Shown in pieces: positions 1,760 to 60,525 of a stretch of 61,252 nt of DNA. The translations under genes and the position numbers were made by a program. Under the pieces are notes generated by a model, which had not been told where the DNA came from, searched no databases, and worked only from the letters and a program-made list of their open reading frames with translations. Position 1 is the first letter of the stretch. Each line of letters starts with the position of its first letter. Source of the stretch: an uncultured Candidatus Saccharibacteria bacterium (GTDB taxonomy: Bacteria; Patescibacteriota; Minisyncoccia; Phycocordibacterales; PALSA-1337); assembly GCA_964357605.1 (NCBI GenBank), contig CAYHLX010000005.1, forward strand, positions 1 to 61,252, given 5' to 3'.

Positions 1760-2737
1760 TTAGATTAGCATTCCTGCCTTAATGACGTGTTGGACCAACG
1801 TATGGGTATACCCCATCTCATTGTCATACCACGCCAAGACTTTTACAAGGTTGCCATCTACCACTCTTGTAAAAGCCAAATCTGCAATAGAAGCATGCTG
1901 ATTACCAATAATGTCATGAGAAACCAATTCCTCTTCCGTCACCGTAAATATCCCCTTCCAGCGTGCCTCTTCCGCCGCTTTCTTTAAAATATTGTTAACC
2001 TCTTCAGCTGTCGTATTTTTCTTGGAAATAAAAGTAATATCTACAATAGAGCCAGCCGGTACTGGCACCCGGATAGAAATACCATCAAACTTCCCTTCCA
2101 GTTGCGTTGCCACCTTGGTCACCGCAATAGCCGCTCCAGTAGAAGAAGGAACAATATTCTGGGCCGCGGCACGACCCTCACGCAAATCCTTTTTAGAAGG
2201 ACCATCGACAAGAGCTTGAGAAGCCGTGTAGGCATGGACGGTATTTAGCACAGCCTTTTCAATACCGATAGTCTCGTCAAGAATAGCAATGAGAGGAGAG
2301 CCAGCGTTTGTGGTACATGAAGCATTAGAAGAAATTTTACACTCCTTTAATTTCTCTTCATTCATACACATGAGCACGGTCGGAGAACCATCGTCTTTGA
2401 TAGGAGCAGTAATTACCACTCTTTTTGCCCCAGCATCAATATGAGCTTGTGCCTTTTCAGTAGAAGTGAAGAGTCCTGTAGATTCCACAATGACGTCGAT
2501 TTCCAATTCCTTCCATGGTAGTTTTGTCGGATCTTTCTCACTCACATATTTTACCCCATTGAGGTTGTGCTCACTCTTACCATAGACCGTGTCATACTTC
2601 AAAAGATATTCCATACTTTCGATACTACCGAGGTCATTTATGGCCACGATCTCTATTTCCTTATTTTCTCTAGCTAGCTTGAAAAAAGCTCTGCCAATTC
2701 TCCCAAAACCATTGATTGCCACACGAATTTTCTTCAT
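1760..2737 (-). CDS. gap: glyceraldehyde-3-phosphate dehydrogenase, type I
   Basis: 325 aa; N-terminal INGFGRIGR Rossmann motif; SNASCTTN active-site cysteine motif. Confidence 0.95.
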   Translation of the reverse strand: MKKIRVAINGFGRIGRAFFKLARENKEIEIVAINDLGSIESMEYLLKYDTVYGKSEHNLNGVKYVSEKDPTKLPWKELEIDVIVESTGLFTSTEKAQAHIDAGAKRVVITAPIKDDGSPTVLMCMNEEKLKECKISSNASCTTNAGSPLIAILDETIGIEKAVLNTVHAYTASQALVDGPSKKDLREGRAAAQNIVPSSTGAAIAVTKVATQLEGKFDGISIRVPVPAGSIVDITFISKKNTTAEEVNNILKKAAEEARWKGIFTVTEEELVSHDIIGNQHASIADLAFTRVVDGNLVKVLAWYDNEMGYTHTLVQHVIKAGMLI

Positions 2738-2774
2738 ATTTTTAAATTAAAATTATGAAGATATTATAACATAA

Positions 2775-2861
2775 CTATCTAAAGGCTATTTGTCCCACAA
2801 AAACTAGAGCGCTCAGAATAACCAAAATACCAATCAAGATAGTTATTTGTTTTGTACTCAT
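2775..2861 (-). CDS. candidate 28-aa hydrophobic micropeptide
   Basis: Hand translation MSTKQITILIGILVILSALVFVGQIAFR; GGAGGT Shine-Dalgarno 4 nt upstream of the ATG; not in the ORF track (too short). Confidence 0.35.
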   Translation of the reverse strand: MSTKQITILIGILVILSALVFVGQIAFR

Positions 2862-2872
2862 AAGTACCTCCA

Positions 2873-4177
2873 TTATCCCACAAAAGTCAAAGCTTTGCCT
2901 CTTTTTCCAGCTCTACCAGTTCTTCCTATTCTATGAACATAGTCATCGTAAGTAGAAGGTATCTCGTAGTTTATGACATAACTTACACCAGCAATATCCA
3001 GTCCGCGAGCAGCTACGTCGGTTGCCACTAAAATGTTTGTGTGACTTTCCTTAAAAAGGGCTAAGGCCTTTTGTCTCTGCCCTTGGGTCTTGTTACCATG
3101 AATAGATTCAGCTTTGAAACCAAGGGTCTTTAATTCTTTCGCCAGTCTTTCTACACCATGCTTGGTTCTACCGAAAATGAGAACTTTATCAAAGCCTGGT
3201 TGAATAAGAAGATCGTGCAAAACATCTAGTTTATTCTTTCCTGGTGGTACACGCACAATATCCTGGTCTACCTGACTTGAAGTTTCGCTAGTTTTTACAG
3301 AAATCATGACAGGCTCTTTTAGAAAATCTTTGATCAAAGCTTTGATCTCTGGTGACATGGTTGCGGAAAAGAAAAGAGTGTGACGGGTTGGTGGCATTCT
3401 TGAAATCATGTACTTAATATCAGCGATAAATCCCATGTCTAACATTCTATCTGCTTCATCTAGGACAACCGTGGCATATTTCTCCAAATTGATCACTCTC
3501 TGATCAATCAAGTCTTTCAGACGACCCGGGGTACCAATGATGAAGCTATGGGCGCGACGTAATGAAGAGATTTGATATCCCATGCTCGCCCCTCCCACAC
3601 AACAGACAGCGTGCATGTTAAGTCCAGTGGTAAATCCTTTAAGTTCTGATTCTATTTGCTGAGCTAGTTCACGAGTAGGTACCACGATAAACACCCTATC
3701 GTTTGCTGGATGTGGTTCTTTTCCAGCACGAGAAACTAGAATTTTATTTATTAAAGGAATAAGAAAGGCGGCGGTTTTGCCTGTTCCAGTATTTGCAATA
3801 CCGACGAGATCTACTCCACGAAGAATATGGGGAACGGCTTTATCTTGGATCGGAGTTGGAGTCACATAACCTTTAGTGATAATATTTTTCTTTAAGGATT
3901 CTTCTATATGAAAATCTGAAAAAGCATGATCTGGTACGAAGTGTTCAATCTTTTCTGTGATAACGGCTTTATTGATGAACTTTTTGGGATCAATATAAGC
4001 ACCCTGTGAAAAGCCTCTTCTTTGAGGAGGTCTGCTACTAAAGGACTTTTTGAATGGTGGTCGACTACTAAACGGTCTACTTCCAGATGTACGACGGGCG
4101 TAACCTGATTGAGAAGAATGACCTCGAGGTGCACTTGAATTAGATTTACTATACGATTTGCTATACATAGGTGACAA
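2873..4177 (-). CDS. DEAD-box ATP-dependent RNA helicase
   Basis: 434 aa; AxTGTGKT, DEAD (VLDEADRM), SAT and HRIGRTGR motifs; S/R/P-rich N-terminal extension. Confidence 0.95.
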   Translation of the reverse strand: MSPMYSKSYSKSNSSAPRGHSSQSGYARRTSGSRPFSSRPPFKKSFSSRPPQRRGFSQGAYIDPKKFINKAVITEKIEHFVPDHAFSDFHIEESLKKNIITKGYVTPTPIQDKAVPHILRGVDLVGIANTGTGKTAAFLIPLINKILVSRAGKEPHPANDRVFIVVPTRELAQQIESELKGFTTGLNMHAVCCVGGASMGYQISSLRRAHSFIIGTPGRLKDLIDQRVINLEKYATVVLDEADRMLDMGFIADIKYMISRMPPTRHTLFFSATMSPEIKALIKDFLKEPVMISVKTSETSSQVDQDIVRVPPGKNKLDVLHDLLIQPGFDKVLIFGRTKHGVERLAKELKTLGFKAESIHGNKTQGQRQKALALFKESHTNILVATDVAARGLDIAGVSYVINYEIPSTYDDYVHRIGRTGRAGKRGKALTFVG

Positions 4178-18302: not shown

Positions 18303-18330
18303 GCTGGGGGATGTGGGACGAAGTTGGAAC
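18303..18330 (+). repeat. island repeat copy R1
   Basis: GCTGGGGGATGTGGGACGAAGTTGGAAC; ends 4 nt before the stop codon of the minus-strand NUDIX gene. Confidence 0.9.
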
Positions 18331-18928: not shown

Positions 18929-19567
18929 TTAACTGATGATATTCCGAGCCAAACCACTATAGCGGTCCGCAAGTCCTTCGTAGATAAGCATTTTCAATGG
19001 CTCGTAGTCCCACTGCTTATCTATCTGCTTCAAAGCGTCGAGATACCTATTTTTGTTTTCACGTTCAATTTTTATAGAAATACCAACCAAGCCGTACCTT
19101 TCCAAAATGAGATTTGCCGCCAACCTTGCCGTCCTACCATTACCTTCACGAAATGGATGAACATGTGTAATTTTGTGATGTATCCAAGCAGTCGTCTCCA
19201 CTACTGCATCAAGCTGTTTCATTTGCTCGTCAGTCGGGTCAGTGTTTTCCATAAAGAGACCTTCGAGAGTTTTAAGACCAGAAAGTCGCTTTATAAACTC
19301 AACATTCGCCTCATTCATATGCTTTGCAACTTCCGAGTGGTGGGGTGGTAGATGTGATGAGTCAGTAATTTTCAGATTTTCTGTTCGCCACTGACCTGCA
19401 ATTTCAGGCCATGCGTCTTTGAAAATAACCTCATGAATTTTTCGAATGGTCCCAGTATCTATTACGTCTTTGGAATGTGCATACTTTCTAACAAAACGAG
19501 AGGCTCGGATAACGCCGATTGCCTCTCGTTTCTGTAGCTCTGCCTCATCTCCAGGACGTGTTGCCAT
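18929..19567 (-). CDS. Fic/DOC family protein (putative AMPylating toxin)
   Basis: 212 aa; canonical Fic motif HPFREGNGRTARL. Confidence 0.9.
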   Translation of the reverse strand: MATRPGDEAELQKREAIGVIRASRFVRKYAHSKDVIDTGTIRKIHEVIFKDAWPEIAGQWRTENLKITDSSHLPPHHSEVAKHMNEANVEFIKRLSGLKTLEGLFMENTDPTDEQMKQLDAVVETTAWIHHKITHVHPFREGNGRTARLAANLILERYGLVGISIKIERENKNRYLDALKQIDKQWDYEPLKMLIYEGLADRYSGLARNIIS

Positions 19568-19571
19568 GTAG

Positions 19572-19769
19572 TTACGCCTTTACGCTTTCAGCTAGCTTCT
19601 CAAATTCTGTTCGGTCGATTTTGCTTCCTTCTAAAGCACTAGAGTAGTATGCATGCTCAACATCCAAGGCGGTTTCAACCTTGCGTTTTTCTTGTGGACT
19701 CATGAGGTTAATCGCCTTGCGAGCGTCTCGGCCAGAGAGTATTACTTTGTTTATAAGAGTGTTTTTCAT
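19572..19769 (-). CDS. Fic inhibitory antitoxin-like protein (class I, VbhA-like)
   Basis: 65 aa; contains the S-x-x-x-E-G inhibitory helix motif (SSALEG); stop is 4 nt before the Fic start. Confidence 0.65.
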   Translation of the reverse strand: MKNTLINKVILSGRDARKAINLMSPQEKRKVETALDVEHAYYSSALEGSKIDRTEFEKLAESVKA

Positions 19770-19787
19770 GGCGTTCTATGTAGTTTC

Positions 19788-20966: not shown

Positions 20967-20993
20967 GCTGGGGGTGTGGGACGAAGTTGGAAC
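20967..20993 (+). repeat. island repeat copy R2
   Basis: GCTGGGGGTGTGGGACGAAGTTGGAAC; 19 nt before the stop of the 531-aa gene. Confidence 0.9.
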
Positions 20994-22705: not shown

Positions 22706-22732
22706 GCTGGGGATGTGGGACGAGGTTGGAAC
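22706..22732 (+). repeat. island repeat copy R3
   Basis: GCTGGGGATGTGGGACGAGGTTGGAAC; 55 nt before the stop of the 390-aa gene. Confidence 0.9.
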
Positions 22733-24020: not shown

Positions 24021-24047
24021 ATTGGGGGTGTGGGACGAGGTTGGAAC
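24021..24047 (+). repeat. island repeat copy R4
   Basis: ATTGGGGGTGTGGGACGAGGTTGGAAC (first two bases diverge); 17 nt before the stop of the 118-aa gene. Confidence 0.85.
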
Positions 24048-24421: not shown

Positions 24422-24445
24422 ATTTTATTACGAACTAATTTGCTA

Positions 24446-24471
24446 GCTGGGGTGTGGGACGAAATTGGAAC
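24446..24471 (+). repeat. island repeat copy R5
   Basis: GCTGGGGTGTGGGACGAAATTGGAAC; 7 nt before the stop of the 96-aa gene. Confidence 0.9.
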
Positions 24472-24478
24472 TAGTTTA

Positions 24479-24769
24479 TTAACGATGTGATCCAAACCAA
24501 TCCCATGCTTGTTTAGGTAACCATCCTTGCTGATTTTTTGGATTTACTTCCATTATAATAATGTGCCTGCTACCAGTATGTTTTATTAAAACGTTATAAA
24601 GTTGGTTTACTTCGTATACAGATTCAACAAAATATAAACCTCCAGGTATATAGTGCCACCACGTCGTTATCCAACCAACTTTATACATGGATTTAATATA
24701 ATTATGAAACAAACCCAAATCAAATGGGAGTGTCGTATCTGGCATAATCATGTAAATTTTATTAGTCAT
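24479..24769 (-). CDS. hypothetical protein (W/Y-rich, 96 aa)
   Basis: ORF overlaps the upstream gene by 8 nt (operon arrangement); no recognised domain. Confidence 0.5.
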   Translation of the reverse strand: MTNKIYMIMPDTTLPFDLGLFHNYIKSMYKVGWITTWWHYIPGGLYFVESVYEVNQLYNVLIKHTGSRHIIIMEVNPKNQQGWLPKQAWDWFGSHR

Positions 24770-25184
24770 TGTTTCCTTCTAAAGATTTAGGCGGTATTTC
24801 AGGAGTTTCTGTCTTTTTTGGACTTGCTAGTGCTGGATTATTTTCACTTACAATTTTTTGAATTTCTGTGAATGTATGTCCTTGATCACCTATAACTTCT
24901 AACGCCTTCATACGATAAATCTGATCTTCTGATTGAAGGTCCTTATGATCTCCAAAAAGCAATATTCCCAAAAAAGTCAATATAAAAACCAAGAATAATG
25001 CTCCAATTATAAACATTAGAAATATTATCGCTGTCATGTTTCCAGTAAGAACAATTAATATAAATGTACCGAGCAGATATGGTGCAATAAATAAAATAGA
25101 ACTAAATACACTACTAATACGTATTTGTTTGACCATCTCCGAAGCAGATTTTATGGGGTCAAATGTTGGTTTCATAAAATACAC
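24762..25184 (-). CDS. membrane protein (2 TM helices) with charged C-terminal tail
   Basis: 140 aa; starts 2 nt after the stop of the upstream 267-aa gene. Confidence 0.5.
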   Translation of the reverse strand: MYFMKPTFDPIKSASEMVKQIRISSVFSSILFIAPYLLGTFILIVLTGNMTAIIFLMFIIGALFLVFILTFLGILLFGDHKDLQSEDQIYRMKALEVIGDQGHTFTEIQKIVSENNPALASPKKTETPEIPPKSLEGNND

Positions 25185-25186
25185 AA

Positions 25187-25990
25187 TTACTGAGGAATGC
25201 AGGAGTTATCAACTTCTCTATATCCGCTATTACAATACCAGTTTGAACCGTAAACATATGAGTTTTGGGGATTCATGATTTTTTCACAAGAGTTACCGAC
25301 TTCTTTGTATCCAGAGTTACAATACCAGTTGGATCCGTATACATAAGAATTTGGTGGACTCATAATTTGCTGACATGTATTTCCAACTTCCTTATATCCA
25401 GAATTGCAATACCAATTTGAACCATACACGTAAGAATTTGCAGGATTTATTACTTTTTCACACGAGTTGCCAACTTCTTTGTATCCACTATTACAATACC
25501 AGCTGGACCCATACACATATGAATTCGCGGGAGCAATAATTTTTTCACAACCGCTTCCCACTTGTTTGTATCCTGAATTACAATACCAACTTGAGCCATA
25601 AACGTAGGCGTTTGCTGGAGCTGTTACTTGAGTCTTAACAGAGTTAGTCCTCACAGAAGAACCAGACGATCCTGATTCATACAAAGCCTTTCCTTCATAA
25701 TAGTTTGGATCTGTTATATATGTTGGTGTATCCCAAGTTGTTCCTCTTGTACCATATGTTTTGTTGTATAATCCTTGGCTAGGTGTGTAACTATAGTTAT
25801 CATACTTCAAACCATTTGGGTTACTCCTAACATAAGGAGCAACATAAGTACCATTTTTCCTGTAATATCCCTCAACACTCACATAAGCATCAGCGTGATT
25901 AAAAACTCCAATAGAAACAAACAACACGATTAGAATCAGGGAAAACTTGAGATATTTTTTTAGAGTGTTCATAATGCCTAGACTATACAA
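25187..25990 (-). CDS. secreted cysteine-repeat protein (5 x 29-aa modules)
   Basis: 267 aa; signal peptide ending HADA; five tandem modules P-A-N-S-Y-V-Y-G-S-x-W-Y-C-N-S-G-Y-K-E-V-G-N-x-C. Confidence 0.65.
   Translation of the reverse strand: MYSLGIMNTLKKYLKFSLILIVLFVSIGVFNHADAYVSVEGYYRKNGTYVAPYVRSNPNGLKYDNYSYTPSQGLYNKTYGTRGTTWDTPTYITDPNYYEGKALYESGSSGSSVRTNSVKTQVTAPANAYVYGSSWYCNSGYKQVGSGCEKIIAPANSYVYGSSWYCNSGYKEVGNSCEKVINPANSYVYGSNWYCNSGYKEVGNTCQQIMSPPNSYVYGSNWYCNSGYKEVGNSCEKIMNPQNSYVYGSNWYCNSGYREVDNSCIPQ
25190..25621 (-). repeat. 87-bp tandem coding repeat, 5 copies
   Basis: Encodes residues 124-267 of the 267-aa protein; copies differ at a few positions (S/N, K/R, E/Q). Confidence 0.8.
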
Positions 25991-26019
25991 TAATTTCTTT
26001 ACTTTTACAATAAGAAGAT

Positions 26020-26943
26020 GTGGTGTATCCTACGTTCATGAAAGATCTTATAGATGGTCTAAATACTCGCTACAACATTTGTGCTCAAACGACATCTGAG
26101 AGAGAGTTTTATTTACTCCTTTACTATTATTTTGACTATATTATAAAAACACCTGAATTACACTCAGTCTTTGAACAAAGTGAACATGAATATCATCAAG
26201 CTCACGGGAAACTATGGTCTAAACCACGTTTAACTGATGAAGAAGCTGATATCGCTGAAGCAAAAACAATAAAACTTGAGAAGTTTAATTTGTTTTCGGT
26301 TGGTGCTTGGATACATGGAAGAATATATCTTCCAGTTGATGATTATAGAAATACTGACGACCCAGATTATAGACAAGATCCTGTTGCTGTAATTTTATTA
26401 AAAGGATATGACTATACAAAAACTTTACAATGGAGATTTCCAGAAATAACAGAAAGACTTAGGGTCTTAAATAGATGGTTTGAAGGCAAAAGAGATAGAT
26501 ACGAAAAAGATTTACGCCAGTTTCATTTAATGTTTTTAGATGAACTGGATAAAATTAAAGTTGGAGAAAAGCCTCTTGTAAGCATAGAAAAAAACTATTC
26601 TACCCCTTTCTCTTTTAATGAACGTACTGGTGATTTTACTTTTTTAAAGACTAAGGGAAATATTTCCCCCGGGAGTCAGGAGTACAAGGTTTTTATTACT
26701 TTATACAATGGAAATGAATACATGGCTGAATATTTAGATATTCTAAAATCAATTTCTCCAAATATCGAGTCAGTTACTAAAGTTAATAAGGCTACTTTGC
26801 ACACCATAATTAGAAACGTAAAAGAAAAACTTGGAATCCTACCAGAGACTGAGGCATCAAATCCAGATATAATAAGAAACATACCAAAATTAGGATATCG
26901 CCTTGTTTTTGAACATATAAATCAGAGAGCAGAACAAGCCTAG
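26020..26943 (+). CDS. OmpR/PhoB-type winged-helix DNA-binding protein (no receiver domain)
   Basis: 307 aa; C-terminal LHTIIRNVKEKLG...IRNIPKLGYRLVF matches the trans_reg_C pattern; GTG start at 26020 or ATG at 26038. Confidence 0.55.
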   Translation: MVYPTFMKDLIDGLNTRYNICAQTTSEREFYLLLYYYFDYIIKTPELHSVFEQSEHEYHQAHGKLWSKPRLTDEEADIAEAKTIKLEKFNLFSVGAWIHGRIYLPVDDYRNTDDPDYRQDPVAVILLKGYDYTKTLQWRFPEITERLRVLNRWFEGKRDRYEKDLRQFHLMFLDELDKIKVGEKPLVSIEKNYSTPFSFNERTGDFTFLKTKGNISPGSQEYKVFITLYNGNEYMAEYLDILKSISPNIESVTKVNKATLHTIIRNVKEKLGILPETEASNPDIIRNIPKLGYRLVFEHINQRAEQA

Positions 26944-26984
26944 AACTTTTCCATACCATTCAAATCAATAAAAAGTAAAAATGA

Positions 26985-27009
26985 CCTCGTTGACTGCGAG
27001 GATTTTTTT
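26985..27009 (+). terminator. intrinsic terminator
   Basis: CCTCG-TTGACTG-CGAGG hairpin followed by ATTTTTTT. Confidence 0.6.
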
Positions 27010-27258
27010 ATGTCTTTCAAATTCAGTCAAAAACTCATAGATGAGACGATCAAGTGTTTTCATGAAGAAAACGGTATTGAGCTGTCTCCTGAATTAACTA
27101 ACGAGTATTTGGAATCATTCGCACGGTTGTATTTAGCCTTCGCACGAAAGACTCTGATTAAGAAGTTCGAGGTTTGCGAGCGGAGCGACCCTGCGCTTAA
27201 GCGCGGGAGCGACGCGCACCCTGACTTGATATCCCCTCACAATTGTAAAGATGAATAA
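27010..27258 (+). CDS. hypothetical protein (82 aa); 3' part may instead be a non-coding origin region
   Basis: ORF only; the 3' third is an atypical GC-rich repeat/palindrome block. Confidence 0.35.
   Translation: MSFKFSQKLIDETIKCFHEENGIELSPELTNEYLESFARLYLAFARKTLIKKFEVCERSDPALKRGSDAHPDLISPHNCKDE
27177..27223 (+). promoter_or_regulatory. candidate rolling-circle origin (palindrome flanked by direct repeats)
   Basis: Near-perfect palindrome CCTGCGCTT|AAGCGCGGG flanked by GAGCGAC and ACCCTG direct repeats, about 40 nt upstream of the Rep start. Confidence 0.3.
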
Positions 27259-27260
27259 TT

Positions 27261-27992
27261 ATGTATTTTGTTTACAAAAAATATGGTGAAATTGTCGAGA
27301 TCACACAAATCGAAAAAGAAATCACGAGGAAAGTACGTGTATACTTTAAGAGAAGAAGGAATAATATATACCCCTCTAGGAGACCCGATAATATTCGAAG
27401 GACACGGCAAATATGTGTGCGGAGGGTGCTTTCTGCTCTTGAAGAATATGGATGTCCGCTTCTGGTCACACTCACCTTTGCGGGAGATGCATCCGATGCC
27501 TCCTATGCAAATGATTCCTTACGCGCATTCCAAGTGCGGTTGCGAACTCAATATTCTTCTGCTCAATCCATCTTTATACCCGAACTATCCCCAAGAGGGA
27601 GAATCCATTTTCATGGCTTACTCTTTAACGTGCCGATGTCTCTCGGAGATACGCGCAAAGGTAAACGGACTTTTTCGTATGGAGATGAGAGGAAAACTCG
27701 CATACTCGCCAAACTCTGGGGAGAGGGATACGTGGATGCAACAGCAACTAACGGCTCTGGACGCTTGGCTTATTATATAAGCAAGTATATTACGAAAGGT
27801 GCTGGAGAAATTCTTTTTAATGCGATGAGAATGCTAAGAATATCACATGGCTTTCCAAAAGAAGAAGTCGTGCGTGGCAAGATGGCGGAAAAACTTGCCA
27901 AGAGTTATGATAAGAAGAAGCCAATCAGGGAGTGGTCTAAACCCAATATCTTTCTCGGAAAAATCACCAAAAAAACTTATTTACTAAAATGA
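27261..27992 (+). CDS. HUH rolling-circle replication initiator (pC194 Rep_1 / Microviridae VP4-like)
   Basis: 243 aa; motif 1 LLVTLTF, motif 2 RIHFHGLLF (HUH), motif 3 YYISKYITK (catalytic Tyr). Confidence 0.7.
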   Translation: MYFVYKKYGEIVEITQIEKEITRKVRVYFKRRRNNIYPSRRPDNIRRTRQICVRRVLSALEEYGCPLLVTLTFAGDASDASYANDSLRAFQVRLRTQYSSAQSIFIPELSPRGRIHFHGLLFNVPMSLGDTRKGKRTFSYGDERKTRILAKLWGEGYVDATATNGSGRLAYYISKYITKGAGEILFNAMRMLRISHGFPKEEVVRGKMAEKLAKSYDKKKPIREWSKPNIFLGKITKKTYLLK

Positions 27993-29467
27993 AATACATC
28001 ATCTACTGCCGTAAATCTACTGATACCGAGGATAAACAGGTTCTTTCTCTTGATTCCCAAGAAAACGAGCTTACAAGACTTGCTAAGGTCAGTGGTCTGG
28101 AAGTCGTTTCTATACTTCGGGAAAGTAAGTCTGCCAAATCACCCGATCGCCCCATCTTCAATGAGATGATTAAAATGATCACTTCTGGTAAAGCTGACTC
28201 TATCCTCTGCTGGAAAATTGACCGTCTAACACGCAATCCGATTGATGGCGGACAAATCCAATGGCTTCTACAGAACAATAAGATCAGATGCATCAGAACC
28301 TTTGAGAAAAGTTATTACCCGAATGACAATGTTTTGATTATGAGCATTGAGCAAGCGATGGCCAATCAGTACATCCGAGACCTAAGCACCAATGTGAAGC
28401 GTGGCAATCGAGAAAAGCTATCACGAGGTGAGTGGCCTAATCATGCTCCCTTCGGCTATCTCAACGATAAAGCTACTAAATCTATCGTTATTGATCCAAT
28501 TCGCTCAAAATATATTCCCAGAATGTTTGAACTCTATCTTACAGGCTCTCATGGCACCAAAAGTATCTCTGAAACCCTTTATCAAGAAGGATTACGCACC
28601 AGAACAGATAAAAAAGTTTTAAAAGGCCATATCCATAGAATTCTCTCTTCCGTTTTCTATACTGGCCTCATGGAGCGAGAAGGAAAATATTACGAAGGTA
28701 AACACCAACCTTTGATCTCAAAAGAGACCTTTGAAAAAGCTCGAGACGTCATGCACGGACGAATACACCCACGTACACAAAAATTATTCTTTCCACTTAG
28801 AGGGTTCTTAAAGTGTGAGAATTGCGGTTGCGCCTTGACTGCCTCACTCAAAAAAGGACATCAATATTATTATTGCACGGGAAACCGAGAGAACTGCGAG
28901 GAACATATAAACTATATGCGTGAGAATTACCTTTATGAGAAAATTTCCCTCATTTTTGATGATCTTCATTTCTCCGAACGGAAAATTGAGATTATGTACC
29001 AAGCGGCCAAAGAAAGACTGGAGTTTGATAATGACTATAGCGAGAAAGTCCTATCTACCCTCCATTTACAGCTAGAATCCCTTAAAACGAAAGAATCTAC
29101 ACTTCTTGATACTTTCCTTGCTGAACAGATTACGAAAGAATTATACGACGCTAAAGTACTGGCTTTGCACAATGAGCGAGTTTCATTTACCAAACAGATC
29201 AAAGAAGCAAAAGCACGACAACCAGCTTGCGTGTTGGAACCGACTAAAAAAGTATTTCTAGAAGCCAGTAGAGCCAAAAAAGAGTTTTTAGCTGGTAATG
29301 ATTTGAAAAAAAGAAATATCCTAGAAAATCTCTGTTGGAACCTTTCTGTAAAAGATAAAAATATTCAGATTGTTAGCCTTAAAAGTCCTTTCAACCTAAT
29401 GCTCAAAGCACCCAAAAACGGAGATATTTCAACTCTGCTGCGGGGGTTGGAATCGGACCAACATTAG
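27989..29467 (+). CDS. large serine recombinase (integrase)
   Basis: 492 aa; N-terminal resolvase domain (YCRKSTDTEDKQVLSLDSQ, catalytic Ser); recombinase domain; CENCGC...YYC zinc ribbon; coiled coil. ATGA overlap with rep; last 10 codons lie inside tRNA-Gln. Confidence 0.9.
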   Translation: MKYIIYCRKSTDTEDKQVLSLDSQENELTRLAKVSGLEVVSILRESKSAKSPDRPIFNEMIKMITSGKADSILCWKIDRLTRNPIDGGQIQWLLQNNKIRCIRTFEKSYYPNDNVLIMSIEQAMANQYIRDLSTNVKRGNREKLSRGEWPNHAPFGYLNDKATKSIVIDPIRSKYIPRMFELYLTGSHGTKSISETLYQEGLRTRTDKKVLKGHIHRILSSVFYTGLMEREGKYYEGKHQPLISKETFEKARDVMHGRIHPRTQKLFFPLRGFLKCENCGCALTASLKKGHQYYYCTGNRENCEEHINYMRENYLYEKISLIFDDLHFSERKIEIMYQAAKERLEFDNDYSEKVLSTLHLQLESLKTKESTLLDTFLAEQITKELYDAKVLALHNERVSFTKQIKEAKARQPACVLEPTKKVFLEASRAKKEFLAGNDLKKRNILENLCWNLSVKDKNIQIVSLKSPFNLMLKAPKNGDISTLLRGLESDQH

Positions 29468-29508
29468 AAGCTTCAAAGGCTCCTGTCCTGCCATTAGACG
29501 ACCCCGCA
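29438..29508 (-). tRNA. tRNA-Gln (UUG)
   Basis: Hand-folded cloverleaf: acceptor UGCGGGG/CCCCGCA, D stem GUCU/GGAC, anticodon loop CUUUGAA, T stem GUUGG/CCAAC, discriminator G; T-loop UCCGAUU is atypical; no encoded CCA. Confidence 0.8.
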
Positions 29509-60219: not shown

Positions 60220-60293
60220 GACCCAGTGGCGAAGTTGGTTAACGCGACAGTCTGCAAAACTGTTATGCGCCGGTTCGATCCCGGCCTGGGTCT
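60220..60293 (+). tRNA. tRNA-Cys (GCA)
   Basis: Hand-folded: acceptor GACCCAG/CUGGGUC, anticodon loop CUGCAAA, T arm GCCGG-UUCGAUC-CCGGC. Confidence 0.9.
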
Positions 60294-60323
60294 CCGAAAG
60301 TCACGAGAGAACTTTCATAATTT

Positions 60324-60405
60324 GCCCGAGTGGTGGAACTGGTATACACGCACGACTTAAAATCGTGTCCTTTACAGGATGTGGGTTCGATTCCCACCTC
60401 GGGCA
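60324..60405 (+). tRNA. tRNA-Leu (UAA)
   Basis: Hand-folded: acceptor GCCCGAG/CUCGGGC, anticodon loop CUUAAAA, long variable arm, T arm GUGGG-UUCGAUU-CCCAC. Confidence 0.9.
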
Positions 60406-60525
60406 CAATGAATTGACGTTTTTTATAAAAAGAGTAGTCTTTAAGAGGCTGCACTTCTTAGCTTTTATATGTGAGAGGTTCAGGAGGAAAAACAAAAACC
60501 ATCGGAACACCGGAAAGACAAAACT

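Follow-up and report, generated by a model that had tools for sequence, protein, structure and literature searches.

The actinomycete integrative and conjugative elements (AICEs) of the pSAM2 type are small, integrate site-specifically at the 3′ end of a tRNA gene, excise to a circle and replicate as rolling circles with an HUH Rep protein. Here, we describe a locus of a related kind in a 61,252-nt contig (CAYHLX010000005.1) of an uncultured Candidatus Saccharibacteria bacterium; "the window" refers to this whole stretch. The segment 24441–29437 is very probably the integrated copy of a Patescibacteria-specific family of 4–7 kb integrative rolling-circle plasmids. AICEs, which occur in Actinobacteria, mostly use a tyrosine integrase, have an identity segment in the tRNA and encode an FtsK-like Tra protein for conjugation of double-stranded DNA. 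In contrast, the present element has a large serine recombinase (LSR), a predicted crossover after the tRNA discriminator base, a patescibacterial host and no Tra. Since no FtsK/SpoIIIE-like Tra domain is found in the element open reading frames (ORFs) scanned, the element falls outside the AICEs.

The tycheposons of Prochlorococcus are likewise small, tRNA-targeting, replicative integrative elements with cargo, and their successive insertions push older remnants into an island. Unlike these cyanobacterial elements, which mostly have tyrosine recombinases, partial-tRNA repeats and primase/helicase genes, the element has an LSR and a rolling-circle replication (RCR) Rep, and its remnant sites are P′-type half-sites rather than tRNA fragments. 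The archaeal SSV-type integrases and mycobacteriophage BPs both target tRNA genes. In the "suicidal" SSV-type integrases (PMC8371274) and in BPs (PMC3694055), as here, an att site lies within a gene of the element, and the proteins of the free and integrated states differ. Those enzymes are tyrosine recombinases; SSV integration splits int in two and BPs integration truncates the repressor, removing a degradation tag, whereas the serine recombinase described here loses only 10–17 C-terminal residues and gains a tRNA-antisense tail. The LSRs of A118/LI, phiC31, Bxb1, SPbeta and CcrAB share with it the Resolvase, Recombinase and Zn-ribbon domains, simple att sites and a 5-bp offset in attP (PMC3783163). 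Their targets are protein-coding genes or intergenic, and their attP is outside the ORF; the element differs in targeting tRNA gene ends (10 species), in having attP inside the ORF and in the replacement of its C-terminal tail. The integrative mobilizable elements (IMEs) of Firmicutes also have a compact integration module (sometimes with a serine recombinase), an RCR-Rep-related nicking protein, cargo and no transfer apparatus of their own. Their Rep-like proteins, however, are of the Rep_trans/Rep_2 relaxase lineages, and they depend on helper conjugative elements. By analogy, the element would function like a pSAM2-type integrative RCR plasmid or an IME.

An earlier note on this DNA, made from the letters of positions 26020–29508, had called the combination of an RCR Rep and a serine integrase at a tRNA unusual. 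However, the pSAM2-type AICEs and the IMEs already pair an RCR Rep with a site-specific integrase at a tRNA, and the pairing is unusual only in its particular form. The distinctive features are a serine integrase at tRNA ends, a crossover past the discriminator, a P′ arm that mimics the tRNA, and an attP in the integrase ORF. No earlier description of these elements was found in the literature searched, the coverage of which is incomplete.

The core of the element consists of four plus-strand ORFs facing a minus-strand tRNA gene. These are a 307-aa ORF, p307 (26020–26943); sm82 (27010–27258), encoding a conserved small protein of 82 aa; rep (27261–27992; 243 aa); and the LSR gene in its integrated form (27989–29467; 492 aa). 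rep and the LSR gene overlap by the four nucleotides ATGA. The LSR ORF also overlaps the 3′ 31 nt of an intact host tRNA-Gln(UUG) gene (29437–29508, minus strand; ARAGORN; Rfam RF00005, 56.7 bits), so that the codons for L-R-G-L-E-S-D-Q-H and the stop lie inside the tRNA, the proposed target. The four ORFs, the ATGA overlap, the opposite-strand tRNA-Gln and an LSR 3′ end written in its antisense are all where the earlier note had placed them. The LSR/tRNA overlap is not due to chance, because the same arrangement is found at 24 of 29 integrated loci and with 10 tRNA species. The note's proposal of integration at tRNA-Gln is supported.

Profile searches uphold the assignments of the two central genes, an HUH Rep and a serine recombinase. 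Rep matches PF23343 (45.8 bits against a cutoff of 27.8; 7.6e-12) and phrog_3419, "rolling circle DNA replication initiation" (3e-12). The LSR has the Resolvase (3e-22), Recombinase (PF07508, 1e-13) and Zn_ribbon_recom domains (PF13408, 1.4e-5; 25.8 bits, cutoff 25.3) and matches the phrog_95 integrase (2e-79). Its N-terminal YCRKS(T/S), with the nucleophilic Ser10, is kept in 31 of 31 homologs. Pfam, PHROG and PADLOC scans agree with the note's statement that capsid, conjugation and partition genes are absent. Its label of "remnant" does not hold, as all core ORFs, an origin and both att sites are present, and the element reaches further left than the note had it, to an attL at 24441, with three more cargo ORFs.

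Rep has more than 262 homologs of about 244 aa, 65–90% identical, and every named source is a member of the Patescibacteria/Parcubacteria. A scan of one genome per species gave 25 loci, all in Patescibacteria genome bins, and an alignment scan of 2.9 million IMG/VR viral contigs gave no relative. A host of the candidate phyla radiation, which the note had entertained, is thus confirmed. Rep is directly followed by an LSR of about 500 aa in every locus, and the order small ORF, Rep, LSR, opposite-strand tRNA recurs with 10 tRNA species at the junction. Comparison of loci finds a core of identical type within unrelated flanks. The family is best read as one of small (4–7 kb) integrative rolling-circle plasmids specific to Patescibacteria, with a conserved core of a small helical protein, Rep and LSR.

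Rep motifs I (LVTLTF), II (HFHG) and III (YYISKYITK, with two tyrosines) are invariant in 22 homologs. The closest relatives outside the family, at 23–35% identity, are Microviridae VP4-type and inovirus initiators and those of tiny Firmicutes RCR plasmids. An alignment of phiX174 protein A with Rep (BLASTP E=1e-4) spans motifs I and II, and in motif III the YYISKYITK of Rep and the FYVAKYVNK of phiX174 have the same Y-x-x-K-Y-x-x-K with the same spacing. PF20199 (RepSA) matches the window Rep weakly (E=0.05) and is a precomputed domain of homolog P0079. A search of PDB sequences with the Rep profile gave no match, and NCBIfam has no family for Rep, p307 or sm82. From its motifs, Rep is a phiX174-A-type two-tyrosine HUH initiator with a predicted nicking-joining activity. 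Protein A and its origin have motifs I–III, the Y-x-x-K-Y-x-x-K signature, the nick core and possibly a gene overlapping rep in common with the element. The differences are that identity is only about 25%, that Rep has 243 residues against 513, and that the element has a hairpin before the nick, has no virion genes and integrates.

The gene that possibly overlaps rep is a candidate in the +1 frame (27268–27780, plus strand; 170 aa). The frame is open for 171–190 codons in 33 of 33 distinct rep genes, while synonymous shuffles give 85 codons and only 0.9% of them attain the observed length. Synonymous codon entropy in rep is 0.98 bits within the overlap and 1.40 bits downstream of it (p=0.0015). 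The ORF has no Pfam match; judging from these statistics, it may be an overlapping gene, as in Microviridae.

A putative double-strand origin (dso) lies just upstream of rep at 27189–27239 (plus strand) and consists of a GC-rich inverted repeat followed by the nick motif CTGACTTGATATCCCCTCA (27221–27239). In a screen for 9-mers in the 520 nt upstream of rep, CTGACTTGA was found in 35 of 37 loci, and all 42 Rep-bearing sequences have the motif CTGACTTGATA(TCCCCTCAYAGTTGTAA), some 40 nt ahead of rep. The window has one copy, a perfect one, against an expectation of 0.02, and a motif scan of the 2.9 million IMG/VR contigs found none. Synonymous variation is absent from the motif, which falls in the final codons of the small ORF (PDLISPH); therefore, the constraint acts on the DNA. 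The motif and the phiX174 origin share ACTTG↓ATAT, the arrow marking the nick, and the phiX174 record annotates the origin at that A. Hence, we predict that Rep nicks at CTGACTTG↓ATA (CTGACTTG↓ATATCCCC; cleavage target CTGACTTGATATCCCC), in the window between G27228 and A27229. A GC-rich hairpin usually precedes the nick motif; its sequence varies by element, with z of -3 to -7 in several.

The right end of the element, attR (P-O-B′), is at 29410–29460 (plus strand). Its P arm is the LSR 3′ coding end, its core the TG at 29436–29437, and its B′ arm consists of the tRNA discriminator, the acceptor 3′ strand and the T-arm. Conserved LSR sequence in the window ends at 29437 (APKNGDISTL), and the final nine codons and stop are antisense tRNA. 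Correspondingly, tblastn alignments of the LSR reach residue 483 and stop at the tRNA 3′ end in L007, L009, L017, L026 and L031 (L numbers denote the loci compared). An opposite-strand tRNA gene abuts the LSR end in the 24 loci mentioned above, and the tRNAs at the junctions are Gln-UUG, Gln-CUG, Leu-UAA, Leu-GAG, Tyr, Gly, Lys-CUU, Lys-UUU, Ser and Trp. In a junction alignment of the 29 loci, the conserved LSR end (APKNGDxSTL) finishes with the codon CTG, TTG or ATG, of which the near-invariant TG touches the complement of the tRNA discriminator. Past the junction, the LSR ORF reads antisense through the tRNA to a chance stop, with tails of 2–49 residues. Nearly identical LSRs are located at Leu-UAA, at Tyr and at a copy of the repeat D2 described below. 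A Cys-Leu(UAA) tRNA pair that is occupied in L001, L008 and L011 is empty in the window, at 60220–60406.

At the left end, 24441–24471 (plus strand), is a site that we identify as attL (B-O-P′). It has a TG core (24441–24442), an acceptor-like prefix CTAGCTGGGGTG (24443–24454) and the 19-mer TGTGGGACGAAATTGGAAC (24453–24471). Across the loci, the site has a common anatomy: TG, then about 9 nt of prefix similar to the targeted tRNA's end, then a conserved 19-mer; the conserved 28 nt are thus the tRNA-acceptor-like prefix plus TGTGGGACGAAGTTGGAAC. In L017 and L022, the first 9 nt of the prefix are identical to the tRNA end; in L026 and L031, the first 7 are. The repeat, D2 (GGGGNTGTGGGACGARGTTGGAAC), has five copies in the window against 0 expected, all within 18.3–24.5 kb and none in the other 50 kb. 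Over all loci, 32 copies are left of the junction on the Rep strand, 2 are to its right and 1 is on the other strand. When the conserved LSR end is joined to the left site, the ORF runs on in frame through W-(D/E)-(D/E)-V-G-T in 17 of 19 loci, and the rebuilt ORF stops a few to about 20 codons later; in the window, the in-frame tail is LAGVWDEIGTSLLTM, followed by a stop. Variation in the 19-mer is mostly at third codon positions. Since the left site continues the LSR ORF in frame, it follows that the site is attL and that attP is within the LSR ORF. The earlier note's integrase-next-to-att arrangement therefore stands as to adjacency; attP itself is within the ORF, and the tail encoded by the tRNA results from the frame running on into host DNA.

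Other accounts of these sequences were tried and set aside. A displaced tRNA 3′ fragment as the second att site was found neither in the window nor in five loci, and it was dropped in favor of LSR-type sites without long identity. That D2 might be a tRNA 3′ half, a CRISPR repeat, a terminator or a promoter was rejected, as it has no T-arm pairing, array spacing or hairpin; its coding frame and its fusion to the LSR explain it. An integron was rejected because the recombinase is a serine enzyme and the D2 sites have no hairpin but are an LSR half-site plus a coding tail.

The geometry of the sites is that of LSR substrates. Unoccupied tRNA genes in these genomes commonly read discriminator-C-A, so attB already has the TG/CA of both junctions. 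From the core outward, the P′ arm reads 9 nt, TGGGAC, GATGT and TGGAAC, and the tRNA arm, B′, reads 9 nt, TxGGAx and TCGAAC. P′ matches its own tRNA at 9.85 of 15 nt, against 7.28 for other tRNAs, a value attained in 0 of 20,000 permutations. The distal block aligns best with a 5-nt shift, GAAC being at +18 to +21 in B′ and at +23 to +26 in P′. A published rule for large serine integrases is that the motif of the zinc-ribbon domain is 5 bp further in for attB than for attP (PMC3783163). The att sites of the element follow this LSR pattern, with no tRNA duplication, a short TG core and the 5-nt distal shift. The distal P′ motif is the complement of the universal tRNA G53-T-T-C56, which would explain the spread of the family over many tRNAs.

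Relatives exist both as double-stranded free circles and in integrated forms with attL and attR; this is a result for the family. Contigs L034, L035 and L036 (6,551, 6,551 and 6,539 nt), from three runs, are 100% identical circular permutations with 30-nt terminal overlaps and therefore represent one 6,521-bp circle. A 55-nt terminal overlap makes L025 a circle of 5,696 bp, and in four further runs it was assembled, at 32–34x and with different breakpoints, as a contig of 5,726 nt that closes on itself, while a separate 407-nt contig with a D2 site in the same runs is at 7–9x. Every circle has the LSR end joined to the 19-mer site (in one case, SFSEM followed by LAVWVDVGTLIIKNI and a stop), which is the predicted P-O-P′ junction. 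The circle carrying rep, int and an attP matching the tRNA end that the earlier note had suggested as a check is thus found for members of the family and not for the window copy. A first batch of 6–7 kb Rep contigs (L001, L002, L007), taken as circles, proved to be chromosomal fragments.

We propose the following cycle. The free state is, as in the relatives found, a double-stranded circle, in which Rep would nick the plus strand at CTGACTTG↓ATA, after the GC-rich hairpin, for rolling-circle replication. The LSR would recombine attP with attB; the junction structure is observed, and the chemistry is presumed. attP lies within the LSR ORF, 10–17 codons ahead of the stop, and attB would comprise the C-A after the tRNA discriminator base plus the acceptor and T-arm. 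From the aligned sequences, the crossover would be at or beside TG/CA, at tRNA positions 74–75, and, being beyond the discriminator, would leave the tRNA intact and wholly host-encoded. The P′ arm imitates the tRNA arm, but its GTTC-complement motif is shifted outward by 5 bp, an offset also seen in other LSR attP/attB pairs. Integration cuts the native LSR tail (xxx-W-D-E-V-G-T) off and leaves it at the far end as attL, and the integrated gene acquires its antisense tail. Repeated insertions at one tRNA would account for the four older attL-bounded cargo segments to the left of the element. The cargo of the elements varies and often includes anti-phage defence genes, and no capsid or transfer genes were found in the elements scanned with Pfam and PHROG.

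Several observations weigh against this account, or at least against its full application to the window. The dso hairpin of the window is weak (z -1.4). The attL prefix, CTAGCTGGGGTG, exceeds the usual 9 nt by 3 and is unlike the tRNA end, CTGCGGGGG, so that the copy may be old, or the true attL may be another D2 copy. At five of the 29 integrated loci, no tRNA adjoins the LSR end; a D2-like site or a tRNA fragment is there in four, and L013 has neither. The short D2-bounded units have no recognisable P arms, and their left contexts are unlike LSR ends; therefore, simple tandem integration is not the full explanation of the array. In low-coverage Logan contigs (X1–X4), the window copy shows no circle junction, empty site or excess depth (6.6x, equal to the flanks), a coverage of about 5x being too low to detect rare excision. 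No empty-site allele was found among same-host relatives by exact-protein look-ups of island-flanking genes, every strain copy found, all from one groundwater well, being occupied, and the empty Cys-Leu(UAA) pair of the window is the only indirect sign of an empty site; the comparison with empty tRNA-Gln sites that the earlier note had suggested thus found none for this copy. A metagenome scan with the tRNA and right flank returned one same-strain contig, which ends inside the tRNA and is uninformative.

Some of these observations bear on the alternative that the window copy is a fixed, immobile fossil within a genomic island, the family itself being mobile. The uniform depth and occupancy, the 12-nt mismatched attL prefix, the weak hairpin and an integrated LSR without its native tail are all compatible with it. 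On the other hand, the four core ORFs are intact and 79–90% identical to those of L005, with intact catalytic motifs, there is no flaw in the dso motif, only one mismatch is found in the attL 19-mer, with the tail still in frame, and the available coverage is insufficient for detecting rare excision. We regard a fossil as possible and somewhat unlikely.

A second alternative concerns the role of Rep. The HUH protein would be mainly a relaxase, the motif an oriT, and the element an IME moving via the secretion or pilus apparatus of a helper. A nick site with a hairpin is equally typical of oriT, and genes for type IV secretion system (T4SS) pilin and TrbC adjoin the element in L005 and L006, with no established link. 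IMEs are described as combining RCR-Rep-like relaxases with serine or tyrosine integrases (PMC5704250, PMC5357655). However, Rep is closest to proteins that initiate replication in Microviridae, inoviruses and tiny RCR plasmids and not to relaxases, and the nick core is that of the phiX174 replication origin. The L025 circle has about four times the depth of a second locus with D2 in the same runs, which suggests multicopy maintenance, and coupling protein or helper genes are not consistently linked to the element. We consider a role mainly as a relaxase quite improbable, although the relaxase and replication-initiator roles are not mutually exclusive.

The kinship of Rep with phage initiators raises a third alternative, that the element is a capsid-less derivative or satellite of a single-stranded DNA phage, packaged by a helper and integrating like a prophage. 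A phiX174-like Rep and origin, nearest database relatives among Microviridae and inovirus initiators, a conserved overlapping ORF within rep as in microviruses, and a size of 4–7 kb would all suit such an origin. Yet no capsid, scaffold, spike or Zot-type morphogenesis gene is present in the window or the circles, neither a Rep relative nor the dso motif occurs in the IMG/VR contigs, and the cargo is of defence genes and surface proteins. The element is likewise distinct from Microviridae and Inoviridae prophages, as Pfam and PHROG searches gave no F-type capsid, coat or Zot-like genes and IMG/VR no relatives. We consider this alternative very unlikely. It is hardly credible that D2 serves the host as an intergenic signal (as promoter, terminator or regulator site), is unrelated to the element and has a position that only reflects local gene orientation: its copies do sit in gaps between co-oriented minus-strand genes and flank the element on both sides in L012, but they are confined to 18.3–24.5 kb of the window, split 32 to 2 between left and right, are fused to the LSR end in proven circles, and encode a conserved in-frame peptide with a prefix that tracks the targeted tRNA.

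Returning to the integrative plasmid, it is tempting to go a step further, with little confidence, and to suppose that an attP in the LSR ORF provides a built-in directionality switch, one needing no recombination directionality factor (RDF), and that the same LSR, acting on the conserved P′-type sites, builds an integron-like cassette array out of single-gene units bounded by D2. The LSR expressed by the circle would be full-length, with the W-D-E-V-G-T tail, and tuned for integration; the integrated copy would express the tail-swapped LSR, with altered activity or stability, competent for or regulating excision. The cassette array would be one of defence and surface genes beside tRNAs in Patescibacteria.

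The Patescibacteria are a huge, mostly uncultured group with almost no genetic tools and few described plasmids. The family offers a parts list for vectors in these bacteria: a 243-aa Rep, an origin some 50 nt long, a serine integrase together with its attP and attB, and circles of 4–7 kb that occur naturally. The LSR appears to read the conserved T-loop GTTC and a variable acceptor stem, which would explain why close relatives are at different tRNAs, and the spread of targets would be a natural example of LSR retargeting. An attP inside the integrase ORF was already known from archaeal tyrosine integrases, and one inside a repressor gene from mycobacteriophages; in an LSR ORF, it would be a simple model for integration-dependent control of a serine recombinase. 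With their Shedu, CD-NTase and Fic genes and the islands that they form beside tRNAs, the elements probably add to gene flux in these reduced genomes.

Homologs of sm82 are directly upstream of rep in 24 loci. The AlphaFold2 (AF2) model of sm82 is a helical hairpin (residues 7–58) with a disordered tail, the codons of which hold the replication origin; a Foldseek search gave only noise and no informative fold match. Among the element proteins, Pfam and PHROG show no match to a known RDF family. sm82 is a candidate regulator or directionality factor. p307, present in about one-third of the elements (homologs in L005/6, L011, L012, L016, L026, L031, L033 and L042), is modelled with an all-helical N-terminal domain and a C-terminal winged helix, residues 197–295 (AF2, pLDDT 88). 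The OmpR-type winged helix that the earlier note had read in it is weak in sequence (Pfam E=0.036) and clear in structure, Foldseek returning the DNA-binding domains of OmpR, NsrR, ToxR, CovR, PhoB and CadC (probability 1.0, TM ≤0.73). On the basis of the model, p307 is probably an accessory DNA-binding protein.

With the nearest attL, the window element is 4,997 bp (24441–29437). Its core has a host-like GC content of 0.41, and its cargo is AT-rich (0.29–0.36). The cargo consists of three minus-strand ORFs. The first (24479–24769; 96 aa) has no Pfam, PHROG or PADLOC match. The second (24762–25184; 140 aa), with a weak match to phrog_27377, has long hydrophobic stretches, and its product looks like a membrane protein. 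The third (25187–25990; 267 aa) encodes an N-terminal hydrophobic segment and four 29-aa Cys-rich repeats (EGF_MSP1_1, 3e-13; phrog_29674, 6e-7). The corresponding four tandem 87-nt DNA repeats (family D1, 25210–25644) have the unit NSYVYGS(S/N)WYCNSGYKEVGNSCEK, with weak EGF_MSP1-like matches.

To the left of the element are the four older attL-like D2 sites, all on the plus strand and all encoding G(V/M)WDEVGT in frame; the segments that they bound contain neither Rep nor LSR. Copy 4 (24029–24047; GVWDEVGT) bounds a 421-bp unit with one 118-aa ORF, copy 3 (22714–22732) a unit with a 390-aa ORF, and copy 2 (20975–20993) a unit with a 531-aa HExxH ORF, a putative metalloprotease. The outermost, copy 1 (18312–18330), bounds a unit of two NUDIX genes, a Fic/DOC gene and a 122-aa gene, a homolog of which is cargo inside the element of L005. 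Copy 1 is probably the original boundary of an island of about 11 kb that starts near 18303. The array is cassette-like and, from its layout, may consist of decayed tandem insertions or of mini-units mobilised by the LSR. The Fic/DOC gene (Pfam 3e-16; PADLOC PDC-S04 1e-23, SoFic 8e-18), flanked by the two NUDIX genes, has a small ORF directly upstream in a toxin-antitoxin-like layout (18929–19770). In PADLOC, it was the only hit in the window cargo, and it is in this older segment.

Individual loci show further arrangements. In L010, 17 nt like the tRNA-Leu(UAA) 3′ end follow the LSR end (2349–2366) and then give way to unrelated sequence; this short stretch could be a truncated target, a rearrangement or a pseudo-attB. 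In L018 (6627–7276), the LSR end is joined to a D2 variant, followed by 576 nt and a tRNA-Lys, and in L012 (9274–13514) it is joined to D2, with two further D2 copies on the right. These are chromosomal P-O-P′-type junctions, and intact elements can thus lie distal to remnants. A divergent second LSR-like gene is found about 5 kb left of rep in L019 (1518–2594; 35% identity) and L028 (1457–2980; 27%), which suggests that these islands also house serine-recombinase elements of other kinds. An independent assembly of the window strain (contigs L044/L046) breaks at 29442, 5 nt into the tRNA, at attR; the break might reflect population heterogeneity at the junction or plain low coverage.

Among the circles, L025 carries a Shedu SduA_C protein (1159–2373; 3e-29), and L034 carries a CD-NTase (1955–3349 and neighbours; SMODS/DncV-like/AGS_C) with DUF2726, YunG and an HTH_3 regulator. 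Three loci have the LOOT RNA motif (Rfam RF03000, 50–89 bits) on the minus strand left of rep: L013 (6552–6660), L015 (5619–5735) and L020 (5582–5701). In L013 and L020 it is between D2 and the core, hence inside the element, and in L015 and L020 it is just downstream of a shared cargo gene of about 310 aa; the window has none. The T4SS-pilin/TrbC-like gene clusters lie just past the element's tRNA in the closest relative (L005, 14191–16605; L006, 6465–8969). Finally, the window segment 31479–32013, between dnaX and dus, has a GC content of 0.50 against about 0.40 and long overlapping ORFs on both strands (143, 115 and 136 aa).

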